A stretch of 64,000 bases of DNA from an uncultured candidate division Zixibacteria bacterium (GCA_963713865.1 OY970208.1:736001-800000); one strand, 5' to 3'. Shown: positions 5,472 through 53,773, counted from the stretch's first letter. The notes: generated by a model from the letters alone, not told the origin. Program-made: numbers and translations.

Positions 5472-7928
5472 CTACTTCAATAACACTAATTTCTTTGCCT
5501 CAGAAAAATCTCCAATTTTTATCTGATAAAAATAAATTCCTGAAGCAACCTCTTTTCCTGAATTATCCTTCCCATCCCAGAGAACAGACTTATAACCTGC
5601 AGATAAATTTTCGGAAACTAAAGTCCTCACTTTTCTACCCAAGATATCATAAATCTCTAAGCTGACAAAACCTGAATTCACCAGAGCAAATTCTATCTTG
5701 GTGCTCTGATTAAAAGGATTTGGGTAATTCTGAGACAAGGAAAACTGTTTGGGCAATTGGTTAATTTCCTCTTCATCTTCTACGTTGACAATAATGGTCC
5801 GATTAAAAAGAATGGATACATTGTCGCTCCAATCATTTGCCACTGCCAGGTCTAAATCTTTATCCCCGTCTAAATCCGCACAAAAAATAGAAGAAGGAAT
5901 AGATCCTGCACCATAATCCACCCTGGTCTGAAAAGTCCCATCCCCGTTGTTCTTTAAGATGGAAACATTGTTGCTACCACCATTTGCGACCGCCAGGTCC
6001 AAATCTGCATCCCCATCTAAATCCGCACAAAAAACTGAAGTAGGACTATCTCCTGCACCGTAATCGACCTTGGTCTGAAAAGTCCCATCCCCGTTGTTCT
6101 TTAGGATGGAAACATTGTCGCTACCACCATTTGCGACCGCCAGGTCCAAATCTGCATCCCCATCTAAATCCGCACAAAAAACAGAAGTAGGATAAGTTCC
6201 TGCACCATAATCCACCTTGGTCTGAAAAGTCCCATCCCCGTTGTTCTTTAAGATGGAGACATTGTCGCTACCATAATTTGCCACTGCTAAGTCTAAATCT
6301 GCATTCCCATCTAAATCCGCACAAAAAACAGAAAAAGGACCATCTCCTGCACCATAATCCATCTTAGTCTGAAAAGTCCCATCCCCGTTGTTCTTTAGGA
6401 TGGAAACATTGTCGCTAAGCCAATTTGCCACTGCTAGGTCTAAATCTGTATTCCCATCTAAATCCGCACAAAAAACAGAAGAAGGACTAGATCCTGCACC
6501 ATAATCTACCTTAGCCTGAAAAGTCCCATCCCCGTTGTTCTTTAAGACGGAAACATTGTCGCTACCACTATTTGCCACTGCTAAATCTAAATCTGTATCC
6601 CCATCTAAATCCGCACAAAAAACAGAAGTAGGATAAGCTCCTGCACCATAATCCATCTTAGTCTGAAAGGTCCCATCCCCGTTATTCTTTAAGATGGATA
6701 CATTGTCGCTCCAGCCATTTGCCACTGCTAGGTCTAAATCTGTATCCCCGTCTAAATCCGCACAAAAAACAGACCAAGGAACATTTCCTGCACCATATTC
6801 CACATTAGTCTGAAAAGTCCCATCCCCGTTGTTCTTTAGGATGGACACATTGTTGCTACCACCATTTGCGACCGCCAGGTCTAAATCTGCATCCCCATCT
6901 AAATCCGCACAAAAAACTGAAGTAGGACTATCTCCTCCACCGTAATCGACCTTGGTCTGAAAAGTCCCATCCCCGTTGTTCTTTAAGATGGAAACATTGT
7001 CGCCGTCCTGATTTGCCACTGCTAAGTCTAAATCTGTATCCCCGTCTAAATCCGCACAAAAAACAGAACGAGGACTATCTCCTGCACCATAATCCACCTT
7101 AGTCTGAAAAGTCCCATCCCCGTTGTTCTTTAAGATGGAAACATTGTTGCTACCACTATTTGCCACTGCTAAGTCTAAATCTGTATCTCCATCTAAATCC
7201 GCACAAAAAACAGAAATAGGATACAATCCTGCACCATAGTTGACCGCACTCTGAAAAGTCCCATCCCCGTTGTTCTTTAAGATGGAAACATTGTTGCTTC
7301 CATAATTTACCACTGCCAAGTCTAAATCTGTATCCCCATCTAAATCCGCACAAAAAATAGAAAAAGGTAATTGTCCTGCACCATAATCTACTTTAACCTG
7401 AAAAGTCCCATCCCCGTTGTTCTTTAAGATGGAAACATTGTCGCCGTCCTGATTTGCCACTGCCAGGTCTAAATCTGTATCCCCATCTAAATCCGCACAA
7501 AAAATAGAAGCAGGATAAACTCCTGCACCATAGTTGACCGCACTCTGAAAAGTCCCGTCCCCGTTGTTCTTTAAGATGGAGATATTGTTGCTTCCATAAT
7601 TTGCCACTGCTAAATCTAAATCAGCATCCCCATCTAAATCCGCACAAAAAACAGAATAAGGATTATATCCTGCAACATAATCCACCTTAGCCTGAAAAGT
7701 CCCATCACCATTGTTCTTTAAGATGGAAACATTGTCGCTACCCCCATTTGCCACAGCTAAGTCCAGATCGCCATCCCCATCTAAATCCGCACAAAAAACA
7801 GAACGAGGATCCAATCCTGCGTCATAGTCTATCCTTGTATCAAAAAGCGGTTCAAAAGCTTGTGCGAAATGTGGGAAAGTAAATAAGAATAAAAAAAGGG
7901 CTGTGAAAAACTTGCCTTTTGAAGACAT
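5472..7928 (-). CDS. Secreted FG-GAP/VCBS repeat protein (14 repeats, probably two 7-bladed beta-propellers) with C-terminal secretion-tail/FlgD-like Ig domain
   Basis: Signal peptide after AAGGAGG RBS (ATG 7928); 14 x 49-aa repeats containing [15 protein letters not shown]; tail LSQNYPNPFN..WDGKD..SGIYFY. Confidence 0.88.
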   Translation of the reverse strand: MSSKGKFFTALFLFLFTFPHFAQAFEPLFDTRIDYDAGLDPRSVFCADLDGDGDLDLAVANGGSDNVSILKNNGDGTFQAKVDYVAGYNPYSVFCADLDGDADLDLAVANYGSNNISILKNNGDGTFQSAVNYGAGVYPASIFCADLDGDTDLDLAVANQDGDNVSILKNNGDGTFQVKVDYGAGQLPFSIFCADLDGDTDLDLAVVNYGSNNVSILKNNGDGTFQSAVNYGAGLYPISVFCADLDGDTDLDLAVANSGSNNVSILKNNGDGTFQTKVDYGAGDSPRSVFCADLDGDTDLDLAVANQDGDNVSILKNNGDGTFQTKVDYGGGDSPTSVFCADLDGDADLDLAVANGGSNNVSILKNNGDGTFQTNVEYGAGNVPWSVFCADLDGDTDLDLAVANGWSDNVSILKNNGDGTFQTKMDYGAGAYPTSVFCADLDGDTDLDLAVANSGSDNVSVLKNNGDGTFQAKVDYGAGSSPSSVFCADLDGNTDLDLAVANWLSDNVSILKNNGDGTFQTKMDYGAGDGPFSVFCADLDGNADLDLAVANYGSDNVSILKNNGDGTFQTKVDYGAGTYPTSVFCADLDGDADLDLAVANGGSDNVSILKNNGDGTFQTKVDYGAGDSPTSVFCADLDGDADLDLAVANGGSNNVSILKNNGDGTFQTRVDYGAGSIPSSIFCADLDGDKDLDLAVANDWSDNVSILFNRTIIVNVEDEEEINQLPKQFSLSQNYPNPFNQSTKIEFALVNSGFVSLEIYDILGRKVRTLVSENLSAGYKSVLWDGKDNSGKEVASGIYFYQIKIGDFSEAKKLVLLK
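5800..7830 (-). repeat. Intragenic tandem array of 14 x 147-bp coding repeats
   Basis: Core such as CCCCATCTAAATCCGCACAAAAAA recurs with a 147-bp period; boundaries approximate. Confidence 0.95.
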
Positions 7929-8204
7929 CTCTGCCTCCTTTCTGGGATACATGTGTGTAACAATATATTCATAACTCAAAAATGAAAAAAGTCAATATAA
8001 ATATTCTAAAAAATATGGAGTGCATCATCCGTAGGATGCTTTAAAATCACCTCTCCCCTCTACGAGCCGTAAAGCTATAATCGGTTTGTGAGAGAGGGCT
8101 TCGGTGGGAGCTCAGCCGAACAGTTATGGTGAGGGGGAATAGAAATAGTATCACCCTCCCCCTACCCCCTCCCATTAAGGGAGGGGTAATAAGCATTAAC
8201 ACGG

Positions 8205-8278
8205 TCAATGCACTCCATAAAAGACGTCCGGGATAAACCCGGACGCTACATTCTGTAGCCCCACCTTGCCCACAAGGT
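8205..8278 (+). repeat. ~75-bp direct repeat (second copy ~11026-11101) flanking the second FG-GAP gene
   Basis: TCAATGCACTCCAnAAAAGACGTCCGGGATAAACCyGGACGCTACATTCT..CCCCACCTTGCCCACAAGGT present at both sites. Confidence 0.8.
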
Positions 8279-8306: not shown

Positions 8307-10724
8307 TCATTTACAGAGCGGAGGTCCAGATTTAAAAAGGTAATTGATAAGATAGACTATATCCGAAAGAGAGGTCTTGCCATCACAATTGGTATTTCCA
8401 GCCTGGCTCGGAACAGGAGCAGGGCCGAATTTGAAAAGATAATTTATCAGATATACCACATCCGCAAGACTTGCCGAGCCATCACCATTTACATCCCCTG
8501 CGATGTAAGCGGGGATGTTACTTAGGTTAAGCAAAATGGAAACGTTATCGCTATTAAAATTTGCCACTGCTAAATCCAGGTCCAGATCGCCGTCCAGGTC
8601 CGCACTGAAAACAGATTGAGGATCATCTCCTACAGGGTAGTTAGTTTTAGACTGAAAAGTCGCATTCCCGTTGTTTTTTAAAACGGAGATATTGTCTTCA
8701 CCAATATTCGTTACTGCTAAGTCTAAATCTGAATCTCCATCTAAATTCGCACAAAAAACAGAAGTGGGGCCATCTCCTGCCAAATAATCGACTTTAGCTT
8801 GAAATGTCCCATCTCCGTTATTCTTTAAGATGGAAATACTATCGCTGCCAAAATTTGCCACAGCCAAGTCTAAATCTTTATCCCCGTCTAAATCTGCACA
8901 AAAAACAGAAGCTGGATAATCTCCTGCACCGTAATCAATTTTAGTCTCGAACGTCCCATCCCCATTATTTTTTAATATAGAAACATTGTCGTTTAGATAA
9001 TTTGCCACAGCTAAATCATAATCCAAATCACCATCTAAATCTGCACCAAAAACAGACTGGGGACCATCTCCTGCTGCATAGTCAACTTTAGGTTGAAATG
9101 TTCCATCACCGTTATTCTTTAAAATGGAAACGTTGTCAGTAGCAAAATTTGCCACGGCTAAATCTAAATCCAGGTCCCCATCTAAATCTGCACAAAAAAC
9201 AGAAGCGGGGTAATCCCCTGCACCATAGTTAACTTTAGTCTGAAATGTTCCATCTCCGTTATTTTTTAAGATGGAAACGTTATTGCTTAAATAATTTGCT
9301 ACTGCAATGTCCAAATCTGTATCCCCGTCTAAGTCTGCACAGGAAATGGAAACAGGATAATTCCCGGTTCCATAGTTGACTGCAGTTTGAAAAGTCCCGT
9401 CCCCGTTGTTCTTAAGGATGGAGATATTATTGCTGTAAAAATTAGCCACAGCTAAGTCCAGATCTTTGTCCCCATCCAAGTCGGCACTAAAAACAGAAAT
9501 CGGACCATCTCCTGCTGTATAGTTTACCGGCAGGGTAAAGTAAGCGAAGTTAGCCTTATAAAGTGCCAGAGCATAATCAGAATTTGCCTTAAGCAGGTTC
9601 TCGCTTTGCCCGGCTACTACCCCAAAAACCACTCTGATAGAATCACCAACCAGCAAATCAAAAGGACCGGTCCCCTGGCAGAATCTTTTGTCCTGAGGGG
9701 AAGTATCATGGTCGAAAGGTCCACCCGGACGGGGTGATCCGGAAGTGGTCAGCCCTGCCATCAGATTGTATCTTTCCACGTCATTGGCTGGATCAGTATC
9801 TATAGTGAACAAAGTCAAAGAGGTCAAACCCAAAGGACTACCGGATGTATCTTTTGGGCTTTCCAAAAATCTGAAACCCATCATTCCCGGTACACCGCTG
9901 ATGTCCTGGTCATATAGAAGATTATAATTATAAACCCAGCAAAAGTCTCGAGTGGAATCAAACCCGATCATATCATCCGTTGCATTCCCCAAATCCGGGT
10001 CACAGGTGATTCCGAGGTAAACCGAGTCCAGATTCTGGTTTCCTTTATTGAAAATATCCCAGATCATAAATATGATGTCTTTGTCATATTTGGAATTAAA
10101 AGCATAAGTAGTCTGTTTGACCAGGATATTTAACTGATCTCCGGGAATAGCAAAGGGATCATGATAATTAATATCTGCATCGTTATAAAAACACCAGCCG
10201 TCCTCAGCTGAAACGAATTTCGGATTACCCTGAGTATCCTTGACTGGCCAGTTCAGACTATCCTGATGAGACCAGGTTGTAACCTCAGTGGAAAGCAGAA
10301 TCGGATAAGTTGGAGGTGGTCCTGAAATCCCATGGTCAGCTGAATCCGGCTGAACGATAATCCCGGGTCCCCACTCGGAGTAACCATCATTCGGATTATA
10401 TCCAACTGATACCACTTTTTTTAAGCCTCCGCCATCTGCTGGAATCTGCGCCCCAATCCAGATACCTGCTCCGAAGATATACAAATTTCCGGTTCCTTGT
10501 AGCCATTCAGTTCCAGCCCTGCCAGTATAAGGGTTCTGACCAAAAATAGCATCATTTTGAATCGGCATTTTGATATGGTTAACCGTCAGATACTTGGCAT
10601 CAGTTGGGATATTCAAGGGTTTAGCTTTCTTAGCCAAATTACTAGCCTCAATAACTGCTGGTATAGAAAAGGAGAAAAATAAAAAAAGAAAAATGATAGT
10701 AAAGATCTTAAATTTTGGAGACAT
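8307..10724 (-). CDS. Secreted protein: uncharacterised N-terminal domain, 7 FG-GAP repeats, C-terminal dockerin-like domain
   Basis: Signal peptide; 7 repeats of the same 49-aa unit; [45 protein letters not shown] duplicated EF-hand-like tail. Confidence 0.85.
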
Positions 10725-14788: not shown

Positions 14789-15901
14789 GTGATGAGAAGA
14801 TATAAAATTCTTTTCTTAAACTCTATCCGAGAGAATGTTCTGGGGTGGGGGGAAAATCTGATTTACAACTACTCAGTTCATCTGACCAAAAGGGGGCATA
14901 AAATATATATCGCTGGCAGAAAAAACAGTGAATTCCTAAGCCATTTCTCTCCTGAAAAAATCAATTTAATCCCCATGAAAATCAAAGGAGACTTTGATCC
15001 GGTAAATATCTTTTTTTTAGTCCAATTAATGTCTAAAGAAAAAATAGATTTCCTCTGGGTGAATTTCAACAAAGATTTAAGGCTTGGCGGAATCGCCTCC
15101 AAACTAATCCGGGGACCTAAAATAATCTGGGGGATGGGGGTATTGCTTCCGGAAACTTCTTTAATCCACAGGCTCACGGGAAAATTTTTACCGGATATGA
15201 TTGTAGTTCCCAGCCAGAACTTAAAAGACCAGCTTGGAAGATTTCCCTGGCTGAAACCGGATAAAATCAAAGTTATTCACAACGGTATAGACCTTTCCTC
15301 TTTTGAATTTGATATAAAGAAACAAAGGGAGAAGCTTTTTCAACGTCACAACCTTGATCCCAAACTTACCCTGATAGGAGTCTCTGCCAGATTAGTCCAG
15401 GCAAAAGGTCACCGCTATCTTCTCCAGGCTCTGCCTGAGATAATTAAAGTCCACCCGGATATCAAACTATTTATTGCAGGCGACGGCTCGGAAAAGGAAC
15501 ATCTGATAGAACTGTCTTGTAAATTAAATTTAGATGACTATGTCATATTTGCTGGTTATATAAAAGAGATATTTGAGACTATGGCTGGATTTGACCTACT
15601 GGTTTTGCCCTCGATCATCGAGCCTTTTGGACTGGTTTTAGCTGAAGGTATGGCGCTGAAAAAACCTATAGTCGCTACTCGTGTAGATGGTATTCCTGAA
15701 GTAGTTCAGGATCAGAAAACAGGAATTTTAGTTCCTCCTGAAGACCCTCACTCCTTAGCGCTGGCTATCATCTCTTTACTCAAGGATAAAAATTTAGCTT
15801 TTAGTCTTGGAGAGGAAGGAAGAAAAAGGGTAGAAAAGCTTTTTACTATCGAGAAAATGATAGGCAAAATCGAAGCGCTTTTAGGTGAAATGTCCCGATA
15901 A
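14789..15901 (+). CDS. Glycosyltransferase family 4
   Basis: VIHNGID, RLVQAKGH, EPFGLVLAEGMA..KPIVAT motifs. Confidence 0.9.
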   Translation: MMRRYKILFLNSIRENVLGWGENLIYNYSVHLTKRGHKIYIAGRKNSEFLSHFSPEKINLIPMKIKGDFDPVNIFFLVQLMSKEKIDFLWVNFNKDLRLGGIASKLIRGPKIIWGMGVLLPETSLIHRLTGKFLPDMIVVPSQNLKDQLGRFPWLKPDKIKVIHNGIDLSSFEFDIKKQREKLFQRHNLDPKLTLIGVSARLVQAKGHRYLLQALPEIIKVHPDIKLFIAGDGSEKEHLIELSCKLNLDDYVIFAGYIKEIFETMAGFDLLVLPSIIEPFGLVLAEGMALKKPIVATRVDGIPEVVQDQKTGILVPPEDPHSLALAIISLLKDKNLAFSLGEEGRKRVEKLFTIEKMIGKIEALLGEMSR

Positions 15902-15940
15902 AAAAGGCTCTATCCACCTCAGTCAGACAGAGCCTTTTTA
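15901..15940. terminator. Bidirectional intrinsic terminator between convergent genes
   Basis: AAAAAGGCTCT...AGAGCCTTTTT stem with A/T tracts on both sides. Confidence 0.7.
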
Positions 15941-15960
15941 CTTGAATTCAGATCTTCTTT

Positions 15961-16692
15961 TTATTTTTTAGGAGTGGTAGCTGGTAAAGTGTTAAATATT
16001 AATGGTATCGAAATCCGGGTCTTCTCTTTCCCCTCCAATTCTAAAGTCAAAGAGCTCTTAAGCCCTTCCTTGGGTAAATCTTTCACCGGTTTTACCTTTA
16101 ACTCAACCGACTTCCCCGGTTTAAGCTTCTTACCTAACTTAACTTTGAAATACTCCTCGGGATAATCGATTAAAGAAACCTTGTACTCCTCTACATCCGA
16201 GTTTTTCAAAGAAAGCTTTTTCTTCTGGGGTTTCCCCTGAATTACAGTGAAATCCAGCGAGGAAGAGGTTAATTGAGCCTTGAAAGTTGAATCCGGCACT
16301 GGAACAACCTGACCATTTAATTTTATATTCTGCACTTGAGAACTGGTATCTTTATAGGAGACATTAGCATATTTGGCAATCTTACCCGAAGCTTTGGTAG
16401 AAGTATAACTTACTATAAGCTCTGTGCTATCACCGATAGCAAGCTCCGTCTTTTTTAAAGGAGCCTTGGTGCACCCTCAGCCAACGCTAACGTTCATACC
16501 CCGCAGAGTATCAGTGCCCACATTCTTTAACCAGAAGCTGTGGCTTACCACAGAATTCTGAGGAATACGACCCCAATCCCAGTTCATCTCTGAAATCTCC
16601 AATTTGGGGGTTCCGGCTTCTAAATTCGTGAAAGCCAGACTTGAAAAGAGAATCGACAATAGAATCGGGAACAAAAACCTGTTCTTTTTCAT
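15961..16692 (-). CDS. DUF1573-like Ig-fold exported protein, candidate selenoprotein (in-frame TGA 16477-16479)
   Basis: ORFs 16477..16698 and 15961..16335 are one frame with a single TGA: ...NVSVG-(TGA)-GCTKAPLKKTEL...; WDWGRIPQ..FWLKNVGTDTL matches DUF1573, which normally has CGCT here. Confidence 0.8.
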
Positions 16693-16817
16693 TTTCACCT
16701 CCTCCGTTCAGTTAAAAATCTTTATCTATATTTACGAAAAATTCGATTAAAATCTTTAGTTAAATCTGTTTGGTTTTAGATGCTTGTCTTCCCTAGTTTC
16801 CCTTAATCGGGAACGAA

Positions 16818-17531
16818 CTATTTTCCAGTAGGTTTCTCCTTCTTGACTGGAATGGTAATCCTGAATTCCTTTCCTCCTTTAACTTGTAAAGTAATCGACT
16901 TCTTAAGTGTGTCAGGTGGAAGTTTCTTGAGCGGTTTGACTTTGAGCTCTATGACCTTGCCGGGTTTAAGAATATCCCGTTTTAGTTTCACCTCGAAAAG
17001 CTCTTTGGGATAGTCTATTATCTTAAGTTTATATTCTTCTTTACCAGAATTATTGAACTCGACTTTCCTTTCCTTTGTAGCTCCTCCCTTCTCCTCTATG
17101 AACTCTATGGTATAAGGAGAATATCTCAGCAAAAGTAAAGTGTCGGGCTTGGACTTCACATCTGCGGTTATCTCCAATCTATTATACCCGGAGGTAGTAT
17201 CATTAGAGCTCACCTCCACATATTTAGTTTCCTTGGTAGTAGCAGCCCTATTAGTGTAACTAATCTCCAATTCAGTGCTATCGCCGATAGCCAGCTCCGT
17301 CTTTTTCAATGGAGCCTTGGTGCACCCTCAAGGTGTTTTTACGCTGATCCCTTTAAGAATATCAGTCCCGACATTCTTAATCCAGAAGATATGCGTAACT
17401 GTGGAATTTTGTGGTACCCTTCCAAAATCCCAGATCCGCTCGGAAAATTCTATCTTTGGTGTTCCAGCCTGAGAAAAAGAGCAGGATATAAAAACCAGAG
17501 TTATGGCTAAAAATAAACCTTTTAATCTCAC
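16818..17531 (-). CDS. DUF1573-like Ig-fold exported protein, paralog 2, candidate selenoprotein (in-frame TGA 17328-17330)
   Basis: ORFs 17328..17531 and 16818..17309 are in frame: ...SVKTP-(TGA)-GCTKAPLKKTEL... Confidence 0.8.
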
Positions 17532-17959
17532 CCTACCTCCTAAAGTCTACATTAGAATTATAATTGAAAGAATCATTTTGTCAACCATTTTCTATGTATA
17601 TTTTCGCAGTTACCTGATTTATCAGGCATCTTTATTTCTCGACAACTTGAGTAAATACTTTTACTTATACTAATCGTTTCTCATTTTACCTTAATGATTA
17701 ATCCAGAATATATAAAATCCTGCGAAAATTATCAGTAATCCGCTCACCTTTTTGGCAATATTCGAGAAATTTGTTATCCCCTTAGAGTGGGCAAAACTCT
17801 CCACAAAACCAGTTGATACACCGGCTAAAACTATTGACGCATAATGTCCTATGGCGTGGACAAAAAGAAGCGAAAACCTGAAAAAACACTTGACAAATCG
17901 TCAGGAGATAGACTTATTTATGAGGAGAAAAAATCCGTGAGAAAAGCTTTCTTGACTGA

Positions 17960-18137
17960 GCGGGCCACTTGTCATACGCACCGATATTCTTTCGCCACTC
18001 ATTTGCTGGAAAGTGGTTATGACATTCGAACGGTACAGGAGCTTCTCGGCCACAACGGTGTGAGAACCACAATGATCTATACCCATGTGCTGAACCGTGG
18101 CTGCCGAGGGGTAAAGAGCCCGGTGGACAGCCTATGA
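17960..18137 (+). pseudogene. intI: Integron integrase C-terminal remnant
   Basis: [53 protein letters not shown] is the IntI C-terminus; no N-terminal part upstream. Confidence 0.85.
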
Positions 18138-18276
18138 GGAGGGAGTGGTTGCGTATTATGCGGAAGCCATATAAGACGCAGAAGCATAACAAGATCCCTC
18201 GTAATCCATTGAAAATAGATAGATTACGCGGAAGTCTCATTGGAGTATTCTCTGGAAGCAAAACCCGAAAACGGGT

Positions 18277-18307
18277 TTATACGGAAACCATATAACCATC
18301 GTTGGGC
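18277..18307 (+). mobile_element. attI-like recombination site, integron unit 1
   Basis: CATATAAC-CATC-GTTGGGC simple-site geometry; 19-nt motif TTATACGGAAACCATATAA also present (17/19) at 18156-18174. Confidence 0.65.
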
Positions 18308-18377
18308 GTCATAATCGTGTGCCCCGACGTCTTAGTCGTAGCAATCTTCACCAGAGCACCAGTAAGGAGCATCACAG

Positions 18378-18815
18378 ATGTCCATCAGTAGCAATGCCAA
18401 AGAGATACTCACTCAATTTACCCGCGAGGTATGGAGCGAAGGCAATATCGAAGCCTCAGATAAATATATCGCACCAAAATACACAATTCATCACGATCCT
18501 GGCGATCCATGGGAAGGTCGGGAACTTGATCTCGCAGGATACAAGGAGCGCGTCAAAACATTGCGTGCGGCGTTTCCCGATCAGTTCTTCGATATACAGG
18601 GACTTTTTGCCGACGGTGACGCTGTTGTGATGACTTGGCTCTGGTCAGCCACGCACAAGGGGGACATTCCTGGATTTCCCGCCACAGGCAAACAAATCAA
18701 GATGTTTGGAGCTACGGTTTACTATTTCGATGGTAGCCGACTTACTGGGCATTGGCAGATCACTGATCGTCTTGGCGTGTATCAGCAGTTACAGCGGGCG
18801 TCTACTGGTGTCTGA
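18378..18815 (+). CDS. SnoaL-like / ester cyclase family protein (gene cassette)
   Basis: W..GN, AFPD, ATHKGDIPGFPATGKQI motifs; bounded by GTTGGGC and an attC. Confidence 0.85.
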   Translation: MSISSNAKEILTQFTREVWSEGNIEASDKYIAPKYTIHHDPGDPWEGRELDLAGYKERVKTLRAAFPDQFFDIQGLFADGDAVVMTWLWSATHKGDIPGFPATGKQIKMFGATVYYFDGSRLTGHWQITDRLGVYQQLQRASTGV

Positions 18816-18823
18816 CGAATGCC

Positions 18824-18890
18824 GCCCAACCAATCATTCCACCGGACCTGCGCGAAAGACCGCGCAGACCGGTGAATTCAAATGTTATAA
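18824..18890 (+). mobile_element. attC site
   Basis: GCCCAAC..CACCGGACCTGCGCG-AAAGAC-CGCGCAGACCGGTG..GTTATAA imperfect palindrome with R'' and R' boxes. Confidence 0.85.
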
Positions 18891-19574
18891 GTTAATGAAC
18901 AAAATGTACAAACCCGCTAAAAAAATCAGAACTCCACTGATTTTCTTAGTGAGGCTGGAGAAGTTACTTACCCCTTTAGACTTGGCGTAGCTTTCCACAA
19001 ATCCCGTTGATACCCCAGCTAAAACTATCAAAGCACAATGTCCTATGGCATATACAAAAAGAAGTGAAATTCCATAGACTATCCTGGCTTTTGTAGCGAC
19101 GAAAGCTAAGATAACTGCTAAAACCGGTGTGGCACAGGGAGAAGAGACTACCCCGAAAAGAAGTCCTAAGAGAAACGCACCCAAGACCCCTTTATGTTTA
19201 GTTTTCAATTCCACAGTTTTGGGAAACGGAATTTTAATCAGGCCTAAAAGATATAAGCCCATAATCAAAGCCACCCCCGCGGCTAAATAAAACCATAACT
19301 TCCCTACATCTCCGAAAAGCTTTCCCAAAAGGGAAGCCATAGCACCTAAAATGGTAAAAGTGATAGATAACCCTAAGGCGAAAACCAAAGAATAAAGCAG
19401 GGCTTTCTTTTTATCCCCCTGAGAATAACCTCCCACAAATCCAATCACCAGAGGGATAATTGCCAGAACACAAGGGCTGGAAGCTGATAAGATACCACCT
19501 AAAAAGATTAAGATATAAGCTAAGCCCGGAGTGTTATTTATTACACTGGATATGTTCCCCAAAATGGATTCCAC
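18885..19574 (-). CDS. ccdA: Cytochrome c biogenesis CcdA / DsbD transmembrane-domain protein
   Basis: Two SPC motifs (SSPCVL, SSPCATP) in a six-TM protein. Confidence 0.85.
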   Translation of the reverse strand: MESILGNISSVINNTPGLAYILIFLGGILSASSPCVLAIIPLVIGFVGGYSQGDKKKALLYSLVFALGLSITFTILGAMASLLGKLFGDVGKLWFYLAAGVALIMGLYLLGLIKIPFPKTVELKTKHKGVLGAFLLGLLFGVVSSPCATPVLAVILAFVATKARIVYGISLLFVYAIGHCALIVLAGVSTGFVESYAKSKGVSNFSSLTKKISGVLIFLAGLYILFINL

Positions 19575-20011
19575 TATTTGACTCCGATCTCCAAAAACTT
19601 TTGTGTGATGGAAGTTTTATCCATAAACCCCTCATGTCTGTAAACTTCTTTTCCAGAAACATCGAAAAATATCTGTGTAGGGATTAACCTTATTTTATAA
19701 AACCTGGCTGGCTCCGGGTCATATCTGATATCTATAATTTTGATTATTGCTCTCCCTTTATACTCATCTTTTAATTCTTCCAATATAGGCAGCATCATCT
19801 TACAGGCTTTACAGGTGCCCCTGCCCAAATCGATTAAGATTGGTAAATTTTTGGCTATTACGCCTGAACTATCATTAGTCGTAGAAATTTTCTCAGAAGA
19901 AGAAGTCTCCCCCTCCTTAAAAGATGCTTTATCTCTTCCTTGAAAGATAATCCAGCCTGCGATTATAAAAACGACTGCCAAGCTAATCACCAATTTCAGT
20001 AATTTATTCAT
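19574..20011 (-). CDS. Membrane-anchored thioredoxin family protein
   Basis: N-terminal TM helix, CKAC motif, IPTQIFFD..G.EVYRHEGF. Confidence 0.85.
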   Translation of the reverse strand: MNKLLKLVISLAVVFIIAGWIIFQGRDKASFKEGETSSSEKISTTNDSSGVIAKNLPILIDLGRGTCKACKMMLPILEELKDEYKGRAIIKIIDIRYDPEPARFYKIRLIPTQIFFDVSGKEVYRHEGFMDKTSITQKFLEIGVK

Positions 20012-20034
20012 AATAAGCTCTTCTCATATCAGTT

Positions 20035-20274
20035 TTACTCTTCTTTAATCAACCATTCTTTAATTTCTGCCAATCCTGGCACCCTGCCAGAACACAGGAC
20101 CTTCCCGTTTATAACTAAAGCAGGTGTCATTAAGATTCCGTACTGCATAATCGATTTAATATCTTTGATTTTAGACACCTCTGCTTCTTTACCTATCTCT
20201 TTTAAAGTCCTCTGCACGATCTCGTAAATCTTCTCACATTTTACACACCCCGGACCTAAGACCTCGATTTTCAT
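20035..20274 (-). CDS. Small redox-active disulfide protein (MTH895/ArsE-like thioredoxin family)
   Basis: MKIEVLGPGCVKC..TPALVING. Confidence 0.88.
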   Translation of the reverse strand: MKIEVLGPGCVKCEKIYEIVQRTLKEIGKEAEVSKIKDIKSIMQYGILMTPALVINGKVLCSGRVPGLAEIKEWLIKEE

Positions 20275-20304
20275 ATCTTATCCTCCTTTTAAATCAAGAT
20301 AATA

Positions 20305-20841
20305 TTATTTTGTAGTTTTTTTGACCTCTTCATCTTTCTTAAGGGCAATAAAATCATTAAGCTCTTTTTGGAAATTAGGAAGAAATTTTTCTTCTTCTTC
20401 ACAAAATTCCCAGACCGATTCGATCTCTTTAAATTCCTCTTTCCCTTTGAATAACTTCTTAAAGCCTAAAGCAGACCAGAAGATTTTATATTTTTTGGCG
20501 GTTGAAGAATCTTCATCTATATTGCATTCCTTGAAGATTATTCTTCGATCTTTGTATGGTTTTGAATAAAATTTCTCTAATCCCTTTTTGGAAAAATTGC
20601 CCACATTTATACAACAGGAACACCGAGCAGTGGGATGAAAATGAATAACCAGTAAACTGTCAAATCCCAGAATTAAAGTAGAATCTGCAACTTCTTTTCT
20701 TGTAGCATCGATCTTCTTTTGAGGAAAATTTGCCGATTTCTCTTTTTGTCCATAACTAACCGACCCTATTAACAAAAAAAGCAGAACTACAATTGAATGT
20801 AATTTGAAATTTCCTCTAAACATTTTAAAATAACGCTCCAA
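20305..20841 (-). CDS. Exported thioredoxin-fold protein, ArsF-like
   Basis: Signal peptide; HFHPTARCSCC resembles the YFH..RCxxC motif of this family; start uncertain. Confidence 0.6.
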   Translation of the reverse strand: MERYFKMFRGNFKLHSIVVLLFLLIGSVSYGQKEKSANFPQKKIDATRKEVADSTLILGFDSLLVIHFHPTARCSCCINVGNFSKKGLEKFYSKPYKDRRIIFKECNIDEDSSTAKKYKIFWSALGFKKLFKGKEEFKEIESVWEFCEEEEKFLPNFQKELNDFIALKKDEEVKKTTK

Positions 20842-21859
20842 AGACCATCCCGGTTATAGTTGCCATTATCATTACTAAGATAATGTAAGCCCCTGTTTTC
20901 CTCCACCCCATAATCCCGATTAGCACGATCATACTGGGAAGGCTCAAAGCCGGTCCGGCTAAAAGCAATGCCAGAGCGGGACCCCTGCCCATTCCTAAAT
21001 CCAGCAAAGCTTTTATGATGGGCACTTCGGTTAGAGTTGAAAAATACATAAAGGCACCGAAGATAGAAGCTATGAAATTCGCTCTTAATCCATTTCCGCC
21101 AACCAATTGTTCTACTATCTGTTGAGGAAGTAATATCTTCATCATCCCGGCAACGAAAACCCCGATTAGTAATATGGGAAAAATCTTTTTCCCTAAATCC
21201 CAAGTTTGAAAAAGCCAGTCTTTAAGCTCATCTTTTTTGAACCAGCGATAGAGGATTAAAAGTAAAGCGAGCAAAAGGATTCCAGTTACCAGCCATTTTT
21301 TTGATGCACCGAATACTAAAATTCCTACCAAGACAGCAAAATATAGAATCGTTATTCCCTCGTGTTTAGGTTTCTCGCTTTGAGGCAGAATCAATTCAGA
21401 AGCATTTTTTTCTTTTTCCAGTTCCTCTTTTCTCCAGATAAAAGCCATAATCAACCCGATTATGATTGAAAAAGATATAGCTCCCACTGCTCTGGCAAGT
21501 CCCAGATCAAATCCCAAAAGCCTGGCAGTATAGACAATGGCTAAAACATTAATAGCTGGACCGGAATATAGAAAAGCAATGGCCGGACCCAAGCCCGCAC
21601 CTCTTTTATGTATTCCAGCAAAAAGAGGTAAGATAGTGCAGGAACAGACCGCTAAGATTGCACCGGAAACTGAAGCGACACTATAGGCTAAAACCTTATT
21701 CGCCTGAGCACCGAAATATTTCATCACCGAAGCCTGGGAGACAAAGACTGCAATCGCGCCAGCGATGAAAAATGCCGGAACCAGACAGGTTAGAACGTGG
21801 GCGGAAAGATATTCCAAAAGTGCATTCCAACCGCCTGAAAGTATCTGGGTGAAATTCAT
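20825..21859 (-). CDS. Permease, ArsP/DUF318 family
   Basis: AVCSCTILPLF, FLYSGPAIN, MYFSTLTEVPI, GPALSLP motifs. Confidence 0.85.
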   Translation of the reverse strand: MNFTQILSGGWNALLEYLSAHVLTCLVPAFFIAGAIAVFVSQASVMKYFGAQANKVLAYSVASVSGAILAVCSCTILPLFAGIHKRGAGLGPAIAFLYSGPAINVLAIVYTARLLGFDLGLARAVGAISFSIIIGLIMAFIWRKEELEKEKNASELILPQSEKPKHEGITILYFAVLVGILVFGASKKWLVTGILLLALLLILYRWFKKDELKDWLFQTWDLGKKIFPILLIGVFVAGMMKILLPQQIVEQLVGGNGLRANFIASIFGAFMYFSTLTEVPIIKALLDLGMGRGPALALLLAGPALSLPSMIVLIGIMGWRKTGAYIILVMIMATITGMVFGALF

Positions 21860-21873
21860 AGATGTCTTTTTTT

Positions 21874-22260
21874 CTACTTTCTCAAAAACTCTTTTATTTT
21901 CTTCTCTATCTTGTCCCTTACTTCTTTAAACTTTTCTTTTGGCTTTTCTTTAGGGTCTTCGATCTCCCATTCAATCCTCTGTTTAGCCGGCACAAAAGGA
22001 CAAACATCACCACAACCCATAGTGACCATATAGTCAAAGTTAGTATAGGGCAAGTCCTTAAATCCTTTGGATTTTTGTTCAGAAATATCAATCCCTTTTT
22101 CTTTCATCACCTCAATCGCCAACTCATTGACTTTTCCGGAAGGATTTGAGCCGGCACTGAAGACCTCTATTTTATCCCTGCCATAGAATTTAGCAAACCC
22201 CTCTGCCATCTGGCTCCTGCAGGAGTTCTCAATGCAGACAAACAAAATCCTCGGCTTCAT
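21874..22260 (-). CDS. arsC: Arsenate reductase, thioredoxin-coupled LMW-PTP type
   Basis: ILFVCIENSCRSQMAEG and MGCGDVCP. Confidence 0.9.
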   Translation of the reverse strand: MKPRILFVCIENSCRSQMAEGFAKFYGRDKIEVFSAGSNPSGKVNELAIEVMKEKGIDISEQKSKGFKDLPYTNFDYMVTMGCGDVCPFVPAKQRIEWEIEDPKEKPKEKFKEVRDKIEKKIKEFLRK

Positions 22261-22269
22261 CTGTTACCT

Positions 22270-23319
<1,050 letters not shown>

Positions 23320-23349
23320 AAAGGAGATACTCCTGTTTTTTGATTGGAT

Positions 23350-23697
23350 TTATTTACATTTGTAGGCATATGCCTGAGAGAGTTTTTTCTTCAGTCTTTC
23401 TTCATCCTGTTTAACTGATTCACTATCAGGAAGAGCATTTTTAATAGTCTGAACTACGGACTTCTCAAAATCGTTCTGGGGCTTGAATAGAGAGTAAAAA
23501 ATCCATAAACCCTCTCTTCGGTCTTCTACTAAACCGGTTGAGCGAAGGATGGTTAGATGTCTGGAGACTTTGGACTGGGATAAATCTAAAGCAGCTTCCA
23601 GTTCGCACACGCACAGCTCCCTTTTCAAAAGAAGCTTCAAAATCCTCAGGCGGGTCTCGTCCCCTAAGGCTTTTAACATCTTAATTTGTATTTGCAT
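23350..23697 (-). CDS. arsR: ArsR/SmtB family repressor
   Basis: KALGDETRLRIL..ELCVCEL..SQSKVSRHL. Confidence 0.92.
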   Translation of the reverse strand: MQIQIKMLKALGDETRLRILKLLLKRELCVCELEAALDLSQSKVSRHLTILRSTGLVEDRREGLWIFYSLFKPQNDFEKSVVQTIKNALPDSESVKQDEERLKKKLSQAYAYKCK

Positions 23698-53260: not shown

Positions 53261-53392
53261 ATTACGATTAATCAAACTAACAAGGGTTTAATAAATCAAG
53301 CTCCTACAGAAAAATATTTGTCGGGGTTCGATTTATCGAACCCCGAATCTCTTACCAACACAAGTTTATTTATGAATAAACAAATAAAAAAC

Positions 53393-53773
53393 TGGAGGCG
53401 GTGGGAATCGAACCCACGTCCGAAGATAAGAATCAAAGGACATCTACAGGCTTAGCTTAGTCTTTTCCCCTCCCACCAGAGGCAGGAGAGAATTTGTCCC
53501 GGGGAAGACCGACAAGCAGGTTTAACCCGGAACTATCCTGGTTTTATTTCGCCCTCTTCCCCCAGGAGTAAAAAGAAGGCTATCCTGTTTTTCTCGACGC
53601 CTTAGTCCAAGCCAACAGGCAGGCTCAGGTAAGACGAGCTACCTTTTATTAGGCAGCCAGTGCGTACGAATAGTCGTTTGCACTTAGATTTGTTCCCAAT
53701 GGATTAACGAGGTTACTGGGTACCTCGGCCTGCTTTCCTTTACCCTTAGTCCCCGTCGAAACCGATCGCCCCC
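53393..53773 (-). ncRNA. ssrA: tmRNA, tag (A)ANDYSYALAA
   Basis: 5' GGGGGCGATCGGTTTCGAC and 3' GGTTCGATTCCCACCGCCTCCA form the Ala-type acceptor stem with G3:U; tag frame at 53681-53652 followed by TAA TAA; CCA not encoded. Confidence 0.95.

Follow-up and report, generated by a model that had tools for sequence, protein, structure and literature searches.

DUF1573 proteins with a U-G-C motif are a known selenoprotein family, on record since 2007 in published tables (2007/2008, 2022 and 2026). OS_HP2 is entered as a selenoprotein in table 2 of the Olavius symbiont study (PMC1976440) and as 'OS_HP2, pfam07610, UxC' in a table of the GOS study (PMC2398784), and the tables of two reviews, from 2022 and 2026, give a DUF1573 domain-containing protein, PF07610, with UGC (PMC9312934, PMC13188914). 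Together with the NCBIfam model NF041425, 'OS_HP2 family (seleno)protein', these entries settle affirmatively what the original prediction had left undecided, namely whether the family was already recorded. No functional study of DUF1573 was found in our literature search, in which supplementary files may hold family lists, and the one paper listed for Zixibacteria and selenoproteins is, judged by its title and the opening of its abstract, not about this family.

Here we describe two members, genes A and B, from a 64,000-nt window of the genome of an uncultured Zixibacteria bacterium (window positions are counted from its first letter). Like the family in the review tables, both carry U-G-C inside a PF07610 domain; Sec stands at the first Cys of C-G-C-T, and homologues with Cys exist. 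They differ from the published family descriptions in being a two-domain, signal-peptide form that occurs throughout Zixibacteria. Against NF041425 they score 47.8 and 56.9 bits, below its cut-off of 100, and are related to that subfamily without being members as defined, which means that automatic annotation would leave them unnamed. In a set of 5.8 billion proteins, most close relatives are C-terminal pieces of 160–174 aa, and the names these relatives bear assign the lineage to Zixibacteria; because Zixibacteria entries are split or truncated and score below the NCBIfam model, the local selenoproteome is undercounted. Genes A and B are thus a lineage-wide, under-annotated addition to a known selenoprotein family, and the new leads are modest: the SECIS architecture, the functional context, the duplication of A and B from a Sec-containing ancestor and the truncated public entries.

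Architecture of genes A and B

Read with translation table 11, the two genes break into four fragments. The original prediction took these fragments for two genes with one TGA each, and with TGA read as U both are indeed uninterrupted on the minus strand: gene B (16818–17531) encodes 237 aa including Sec68, and gene A (15961–16698) encodes 245 aa from GTG 16698. Gene B starts at a GTG with AGGAGG 4 nt upstream (17536–17541), a ribosome-binding site identified by eye, and 25 nt upstream of its start is a promoter-like site (17557–17584, minus strand; TTGACA, 16 nt, TATAAT) that matches the consensus at 12 of 12 positions. For gene A, ATG 16692 (243 aa), which follows GGAGGAGG, appears by eye the more likely start than GTG 16698. 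The in-frame TGA is codon 68 in gene B (17328–17330; motif P-U-G-C-T) and codon 74 in gene A (16477–16479; motif G-U-G-C-T), and in both it is followed by GCTKAPLKKTELAIGDSTEL. A DUF1573-like start had been proposed, and the PF07610 match spans the TGA in each gene (gene B residues 27–125, E = 2e-22; gene A residues 34–131, E = 5e-18), with scores of 79.6 bits (gene B) and 65.3 bits (gene A), above the gathering threshold of 26.1 bits. The signal peptides proposed for each gene look typical by eye, with predicted ends at FSQA/GTPK in gene B and NLEA/GTPK in gene A.

The two proteins are 50% identical (111/224). Alignment of the genes reproduced the earlier observation that 52 of 56 nt are identical from the TGA onwards, the 41 nt upstream being much more diverged. 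All four differences (CCT/CCA, TTA/TTG, CTT/CTG and GGT/GGC) are synonymous and fall outside the arms GGCTCC/GGAGCT and GCTATC/GATAGC. Contigs from relatives in four DNA runs overlap the region: one covers 16426–17599 with 107 differing letters, and another is identical across 17235–17395. Read depth was highest over the two SECIS bins, and none of the differences listed for the four runs (there are 159 further rows) changes either TGA. No RNA run is listed as covering these genes.

Sec machinery and the RNA element after the UGA

The host genome is a single contig of 2.72 Mb (C1; estimated completeness 94%), and the Sec machinery that selenoproteins would need was found in it in full. A tRNA-Sec (62.3 bits; ARAGORN anticodon TCA) forms one contiguous same-strand cluster with selD, selA and selB, all three above curated cut-offs, at C1:1640358–1645027, outside the window. 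Within selD itself, an in-frame TGA (motif SSGUAAKC) precedes two hairpins. TGA also terminates 306 of the 1,132 open frames of at least 300 codons and is therefore a normal stop in this genome.

Bacterial SECIS elements of the E. coli fdhF type are stem-loops within the coding region, immediately downstream of the UGA. Genes A and B resemble this arrangement and the bSECISearch consensus in having a coding-sequence stem-loop right after the UGA, but differ in having two consecutive hairpins, with the G-rich loop about 43 nt away. Counted from the U of the UGA, hairpin 1 occupies nucleotides +15 to +38 and hairpin 2 (GCUAUC-GGN-GAUAGC) nucleotides +40 to +54. The SECIS region of gene B (17277–17316, minus strand) comprises hairpin 1 at 17293–17316 (GGCUCC/GGAGCU) and hairpin 2 at 17277–17291 (GCUAUC-GGC-GAUAGC); that of gene A (16426–16466, minus strand) comprises hairpin 1 at 16441–16466, with one extra A-U pair, and hairpin 2 at 16426–16440 (GCUAUC-GGU-GAUAGC). 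The bSECISearch rule reportedly calls for an apical loop that begins with G and lies 16–37 nt from the UGA; by this rule hairpin 1 is in range with a loop that has no conserved G, whereas the G-G-N loop of hairpin 2 starts at about 43 nt.

The original prediction called for folding and covariation analysis of the nucleotides after the TGA, and this returned the two hairpins, frozen synonymous sites in the stems and one compensatory pair. Across 39 Sec forms, 94.2% of the cells in the two-hairpin structure pair, against 27–57% with slid partners. Pair 49/57 of hairpin 2 switches between G-C (27 sequences) and A-U (12 sequences, from the host's family), a compensatory change that may represent a single event because related genomes are not independent, and one hairpin 2 pair is a C-A mismatch in 14 of the 39 sequences. 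Among 34 order-level Sec forms (up to 561 pairs), codons for the same residue never differ (0%) at stem codons +5, +10, +11, +13, +14 and +17, compared with a background codon difference of 0.56–0.59 and with about 0.5–0.7 of pairs at loop codons and in the rest of the gene. Mean folding energy of nucleotides +10 to +60 was −16.3 kcal/mol for the 44 Sec forms, compared with −10.6 kcal/mol for the 21 Cys forms; since the relatives are not independent, the p-value exaggerates this difference. Three more distant Sec forms keep hairpin 2, and a different sequence makes a hairpin at the position of hairpin 1. Rfam searched at the gathering threshold over the whole window returned no SECIS or other family, only tmRNA, and at E up to 10 on 15900–17600 gave two chance-level matches and no family. 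The tmRNA gene lies at 53390–53773 on the minus strand, with the tag peptide ANDYSYALAA.

Other UGA codons in the same genome are followed by comparable structures. In selD and two HdrA2-like genes, the UGA precedes a small hairpin and then a hairpin of 6–8 bp whose loop, GUU or GGUC, lies at +30 to +36; since the scan itself required such a hairpin, we treat these cases as illustrative and not as independent evidence. The G-G-N loop of hairpin 2 resembles the GGUC loop of the hdrA hairpins, and the G-rich loop of A and B is farther from the UGA than in selD (+36) or hdrA (+30). On our reading, hairpin 2 may be the SelB-binding element and hairpin 1 may compact the spacer.

The HdrA2-like genes, of 1,016 and 816 aa, lie on the minus strand at about C1:2207484–2210535 and 2199046–2201497. 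Each has one in-frame TGA, at TMDC(A/S)I-U-ILGP, and a GGUC-loop hairpin about 30 nt downstream. This motif is the known Sec site of HdrA, and both genes probably encode selenoproteins. A further in-frame TGA at C1:2294034 (minus strand; KACGY-U-DSSPAEG), with 46 open codons before it, 372 after it and a 7-bp GC-rich hairpin 18 nt downstream, may mark another selenoprotein or merely a stop with a terminator-like hairpin.

Sec/Cys alternation, selection and ancestry

Of 40 relatives searched in six frames, 39 contain homologues (40 of 41 genomes with the host included), many with one TGA and others with none. At the level of the phylum, the family was present in 151 of 151 genomes at 1–7 copies each; by hand count, 93 of the 150 matches listed have one TGA and 57 have none (there are 488 further matches). 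The original prediction proposed looking for alternation of TGA with Cys at the aligned column, and alternation is what the alignment holds: across 65 homologous segments the column is U in 44 and C in 21, with no Trp and no other residue. The segments comprise the 30 best loci, 20 regions chosen so that both kinds were represented and the third copy in the host genome, and we caution against reading 44:21 as a frequency because the loci were partly hand-picked. A full-length relative that is 68% identical has Cys at the Sec position.

With the Sec/Cys column masked and one fused read-through segment omitted, the tree comprises 64 rows and requires at least six switches between Sec and Cys, three of them forced by well-supported branches. 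A and B fall into sister clades with six orthologues each (SH-aLRT 99); their shared TGA was thus inherited from one Sec-containing ancestor, and the phylogeny indicates that the pair arose by duplication of a gene that already bore Sec. The earlier argument that two independent nonsense mutations at one codon are unlikely is accordingly inapplicable, the TGA having reached A and B through one gene duplication. Decay of the downstream halves, which would have refuted the prediction, was looked for and is absent: dN/dS is 0.14–0.19 downstream of the TGA and 0.10–0.23 upstream, values that indicate purifying selection on the halves after the TGA.

The candidate-selenoprotein reading is borne out by the Sec machinery, the column of U and C only, the constrained hairpins, the purifying selection downstream and the use of TGA elsewhere as a stop. 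We regard A and B as functional selenoprotein genes, the best overall explanation, with a probability of roughly 0.85; taken by itself, real Sec decoding of the two TGA codons is very highly probable on the sequence data. In such a mechanism, SelB and Sec-tRNA(Sec) would decode the single UGA of each gene as Sec, and the signal would be a composite coding structure in which a spacer hairpin is followed by a G-G-N triloop hairpin of 6–7 bp that resembles those behind the UGA codons of the host selD and two hdrA genes.

Fold, gene context and possible role

AlphaFold2 run on 63 sequences gave a model of two β-sandwich domains (pLDDT 93.1, pTM 0.89), in which the strand formed by mature residues 42–44 leads into a loop that carries U-G-C; conservation is complete or almost complete at positions that include G16, H26, G34, D36, U/C47, G48, C49, T50 and P53 (mature numbering). 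Structure comparison matched the model best to ASH/PapD-like Ig domains, from HYDIN, CFAP and CEP192 proteins, and to PDB 2qsv (Foldseek E 1e-10 to 5e-8; profile match to 2qsv E 4e-6). A and B resemble these tandem Ig proteins, including the CEP192 SPD-2 domain, in their two β-sandwich domains, but the fold search yielded scaffold Ig domains alone and no functional clue, 2qsv being a Porphyromonas gingivalis protein of unknown function. The fold is Ig-like and the motif U-x-C, not a thioredoxin fold with CxxC or UxxC. A cleavable signal peptide would direct the export of each product. In the model, each consists of two Ig-like (ASH/PapD-type) domains in tandem, and U-G-C falls in a loop of the first of these, the DUF1573 domain.

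On the minus strand of the window, a CcdA/DsbD-type membrane thiol-electron transporter (18885–19574) and a membrane-anchored thioredoxin with C-K-A-C (19574–20011) form a candidate reducing relay, adjoining an ars-type cluster (20035–23697) on the same strand: ArsE-like Trx_3 (20035–20274), an ArsF-family gene (20305–20841), an ArsP_1 permease (20825–21859), LMW-phosphatase-type ArsC (21874–22260), ACR3 (22270–23319) and ArsR (23350–23697). The set at 18885–23697 resembles the NCBIfam-named arsEFG genes (aromatic arsenicals), but CcdA, at 50 bits, falls well short of the ArsG cut-off of 200 bits. The gene pair stands 1.3 kb from this run, and between CcdA and the pair lie, on the plus strand, an integrase C-terminal fragment (17844–18137) and a SnoaL-like gene (18378–18815). 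The stretch 17844–18630 holds a 97-aa ORF whose sole match is to the C-terminal portion of the phage-integrase family, then overlapping short ORFs. In a genome of the same genus, a single strand carries the series from ArsR through Trx and CcdA to B and A without interruption, with CcdA directly followed by the pair; compared with it, the integrase remnant and SnoaL gene look like what is left of an insertion that separated CcdA from the DUF1573 genes. Elsewhere in the window, 8307–10724 encodes a protein of 805 aa in which a dockerin type I domain forms the C terminus and FG-GAP-like repeats occur six times.

Genes around 38 loci were grouped into clusters, which were named through Pfam and NCBIfam; clusters 9 and 13, of opposite-strand ORFs of about 100 aa, were rejected because conservation of the SECIS and N-terminal region most likely produced them artefactually. 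Genes of ars type, Trx or CcdA occur in the fetched flanks of 10 of the 12 order-level Sec loci (CcdA in 7 of 12), a TlpA/ResA-like gene with W-C-A-P-C is directly downstream in 5 of 12, and an ArsR-family regulator is directly upstream of Sec forms in three loci. In the five class-level Sec arrays examined, no ars, CcdA or Trx gene is a neighbour, and the recurrent genes are instead those for GWxTD-domain and MacB-type ABC proteins. Four class-level loci hold tandem arrays of two or three DUF1573 paralogues, Sec and Cys forms mixed, beside GWxTD pairs and MacB-type ABC genes. The host's Cys paralogue (C1:1487534–1488265), also two-domain, has the motif C-A-C. At C1:1487534–1489246 (positions 6534–8246 of locus L093) the Cys-form DUF1573 gene is directly followed by a membrane-anchored rhodanese and then a MauE/DoxX protein with its own C-G-C. 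The trio of DUF1573, rhodanese and MauE stands in 10 loci from three families, and a literature search on MauE with rhodanese found nothing relevant to it.

Known clients of the extracytoplasmic CcdA–TlpA/ResA reducing pathway include ScoI, CoxB and apocytochrome c. A and B are similar to these clients in their predicted export, their short Cys-type motif and their location beside genes for CcdA, an anchored thioredoxin or TlpA-like proteins; they differ in that fold and motif are unlike those of known clients and the link is found in one order only. The occurrence of the family beside two different thiol/sulfur redox membrane modules supports a redox-active U/C-x-C centre outside the cytoplasm, and the contexts of the Sec forms (ars, CcdA and thioredoxin/TlpA-like genes) and of the Cys paralogue point in the same direction, that of an extracytoplasmic selenol/thiol redox role. 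The Sec/Cys pair could then form a selenol/thiol (selenenylsulfide) centre with redox activity, maintained in the reduced state by a membrane relay of CcdA and anchored thioredoxin here and of TlpA/ResA-like proteins in sister families, with arsenicals or other soft metal(loid)s as candidate substrates. We advance such a relay-served centre tentatively, from gene context and motif chemistry; the Ig-like fold, which is not thioredoxin-like, and U-x-C, which is not a classical redox motif, speak against it. Because the context is seen in one order, gene B has a consensus promoter of its own, and an integrase remnant and an opposite-strand gene intervene, the adjacency of the pair to CcdA may be inherited synteny, and much of the context could be accounted for by synteny that the members of one order share. 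The original suggestion that U-G-C is a redox or metal-binding motif has gained support from gene context, and is still something that we infer.

The main rival to a redox centre keeps the selenoproteins real and makes U-G-C a site for soft metals or metalloids (As(III), Cu(I), Hg or Cd), possibly with the nearly invariant His 21 residues upstream, the neighbouring reductases serving only to hold that site in its reduced state, much as TlpA serves ScoI, a copper chaperone. The ArsR-family genes directly upstream in three loci, the ars genes near 10 of the 12 order-level loci and the invariance or near-invariance of His26, Cys49 and Sec47 (mature numbering) are all consistent with metal binding, and several predicted bacterial selenoproteins in the review tables handle metals. 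However, profile searches with A and B matched no metal-binding family, the rhodanese and MauE partners of the Cys paralogue suggest sulfur/thiol chemistry over metals, and the ars link does not extend beyond the order; we consider a metal site unlikely, if still to be reckoned with. A structural role is less in keeping with the data: Sec or Cys would form with the next Cys a selenosulfide or disulfide that steadies the loop, in Ig adhesins or scaffolds with no chemistry of their own. The exclusive match of the fold to scaffold domains (HYDIN, CFAP, CEP192 and 2qsv) fits this idea, yet keeping costly Sec in many lineages through at least three to six Sec/Cys switches would be unusual for mere structure, and the family recurs beside thiol-redox membrane modules in two different ways, which makes a purely structural bond improbable.

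Two further explanations dispense with Sec. UGA read-through occurs in bacteria, and this general precedent, with nothing specific to the locus, is what favours decoding without selenium by a near-cognate Trp- or Cys-tRNA or through genome-wide reassignment. The frames that end in TGA argue against reassignment, the sel set is complete, homologues have Cys but never Trp at the column, and the structure after the UGA resembles those behind known Sec codons of the same genome, so we judge this explanation very improbable. Least credible, and hardly worth entertaining, are true stops that leave pseudogenes or an N-terminal peptide and a separate C-terminal protein, as automatic callers annotate them in a genome where TGA is a normal stop and as the C-terminal pieces in public sets might suggest. 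Against this, the TGA lies in the middle of a β-sandwich domain, the gene halves on either side of it are under equal purifying selection, it is retained at a single column across 44 genes of many genomes and alternates there with Cys only, and the genome has the Sec machinery and the genes the conserved hairpins. We accordingly reject pseudogenes, split genes and code reassignment as explanations.

With A and B taken as functional selenoprotein genes, the practical value of the finding lies in the annotation of Zixibacteria selenoproteins, and the two-hairpin element would offer a clean natural example in which to study the distance that a SelB-binding loop may have from its UGA. DUF1573 is a widespread domain without an assigned function, and the contexts described here give a concrete, testable hypothesis for its C-x-C motif. 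Speculatively, and with considerable doubt, the C/U-G-C DUF1573 proteins might be unrecognised extracytoplasmic thiol/selenol carriers on an Ig scaffold, served by CcdA–Trx/TlpA for Sec forms and by MauE–rhodanese for Cys forms, with the Sec versions as the periplasmic, metalloid-facing part of the order's arsenic-resistance island. If that were true, Sec-containing DUF1573 proteins might bind or reduce arsenicals outside the cytoplasm.
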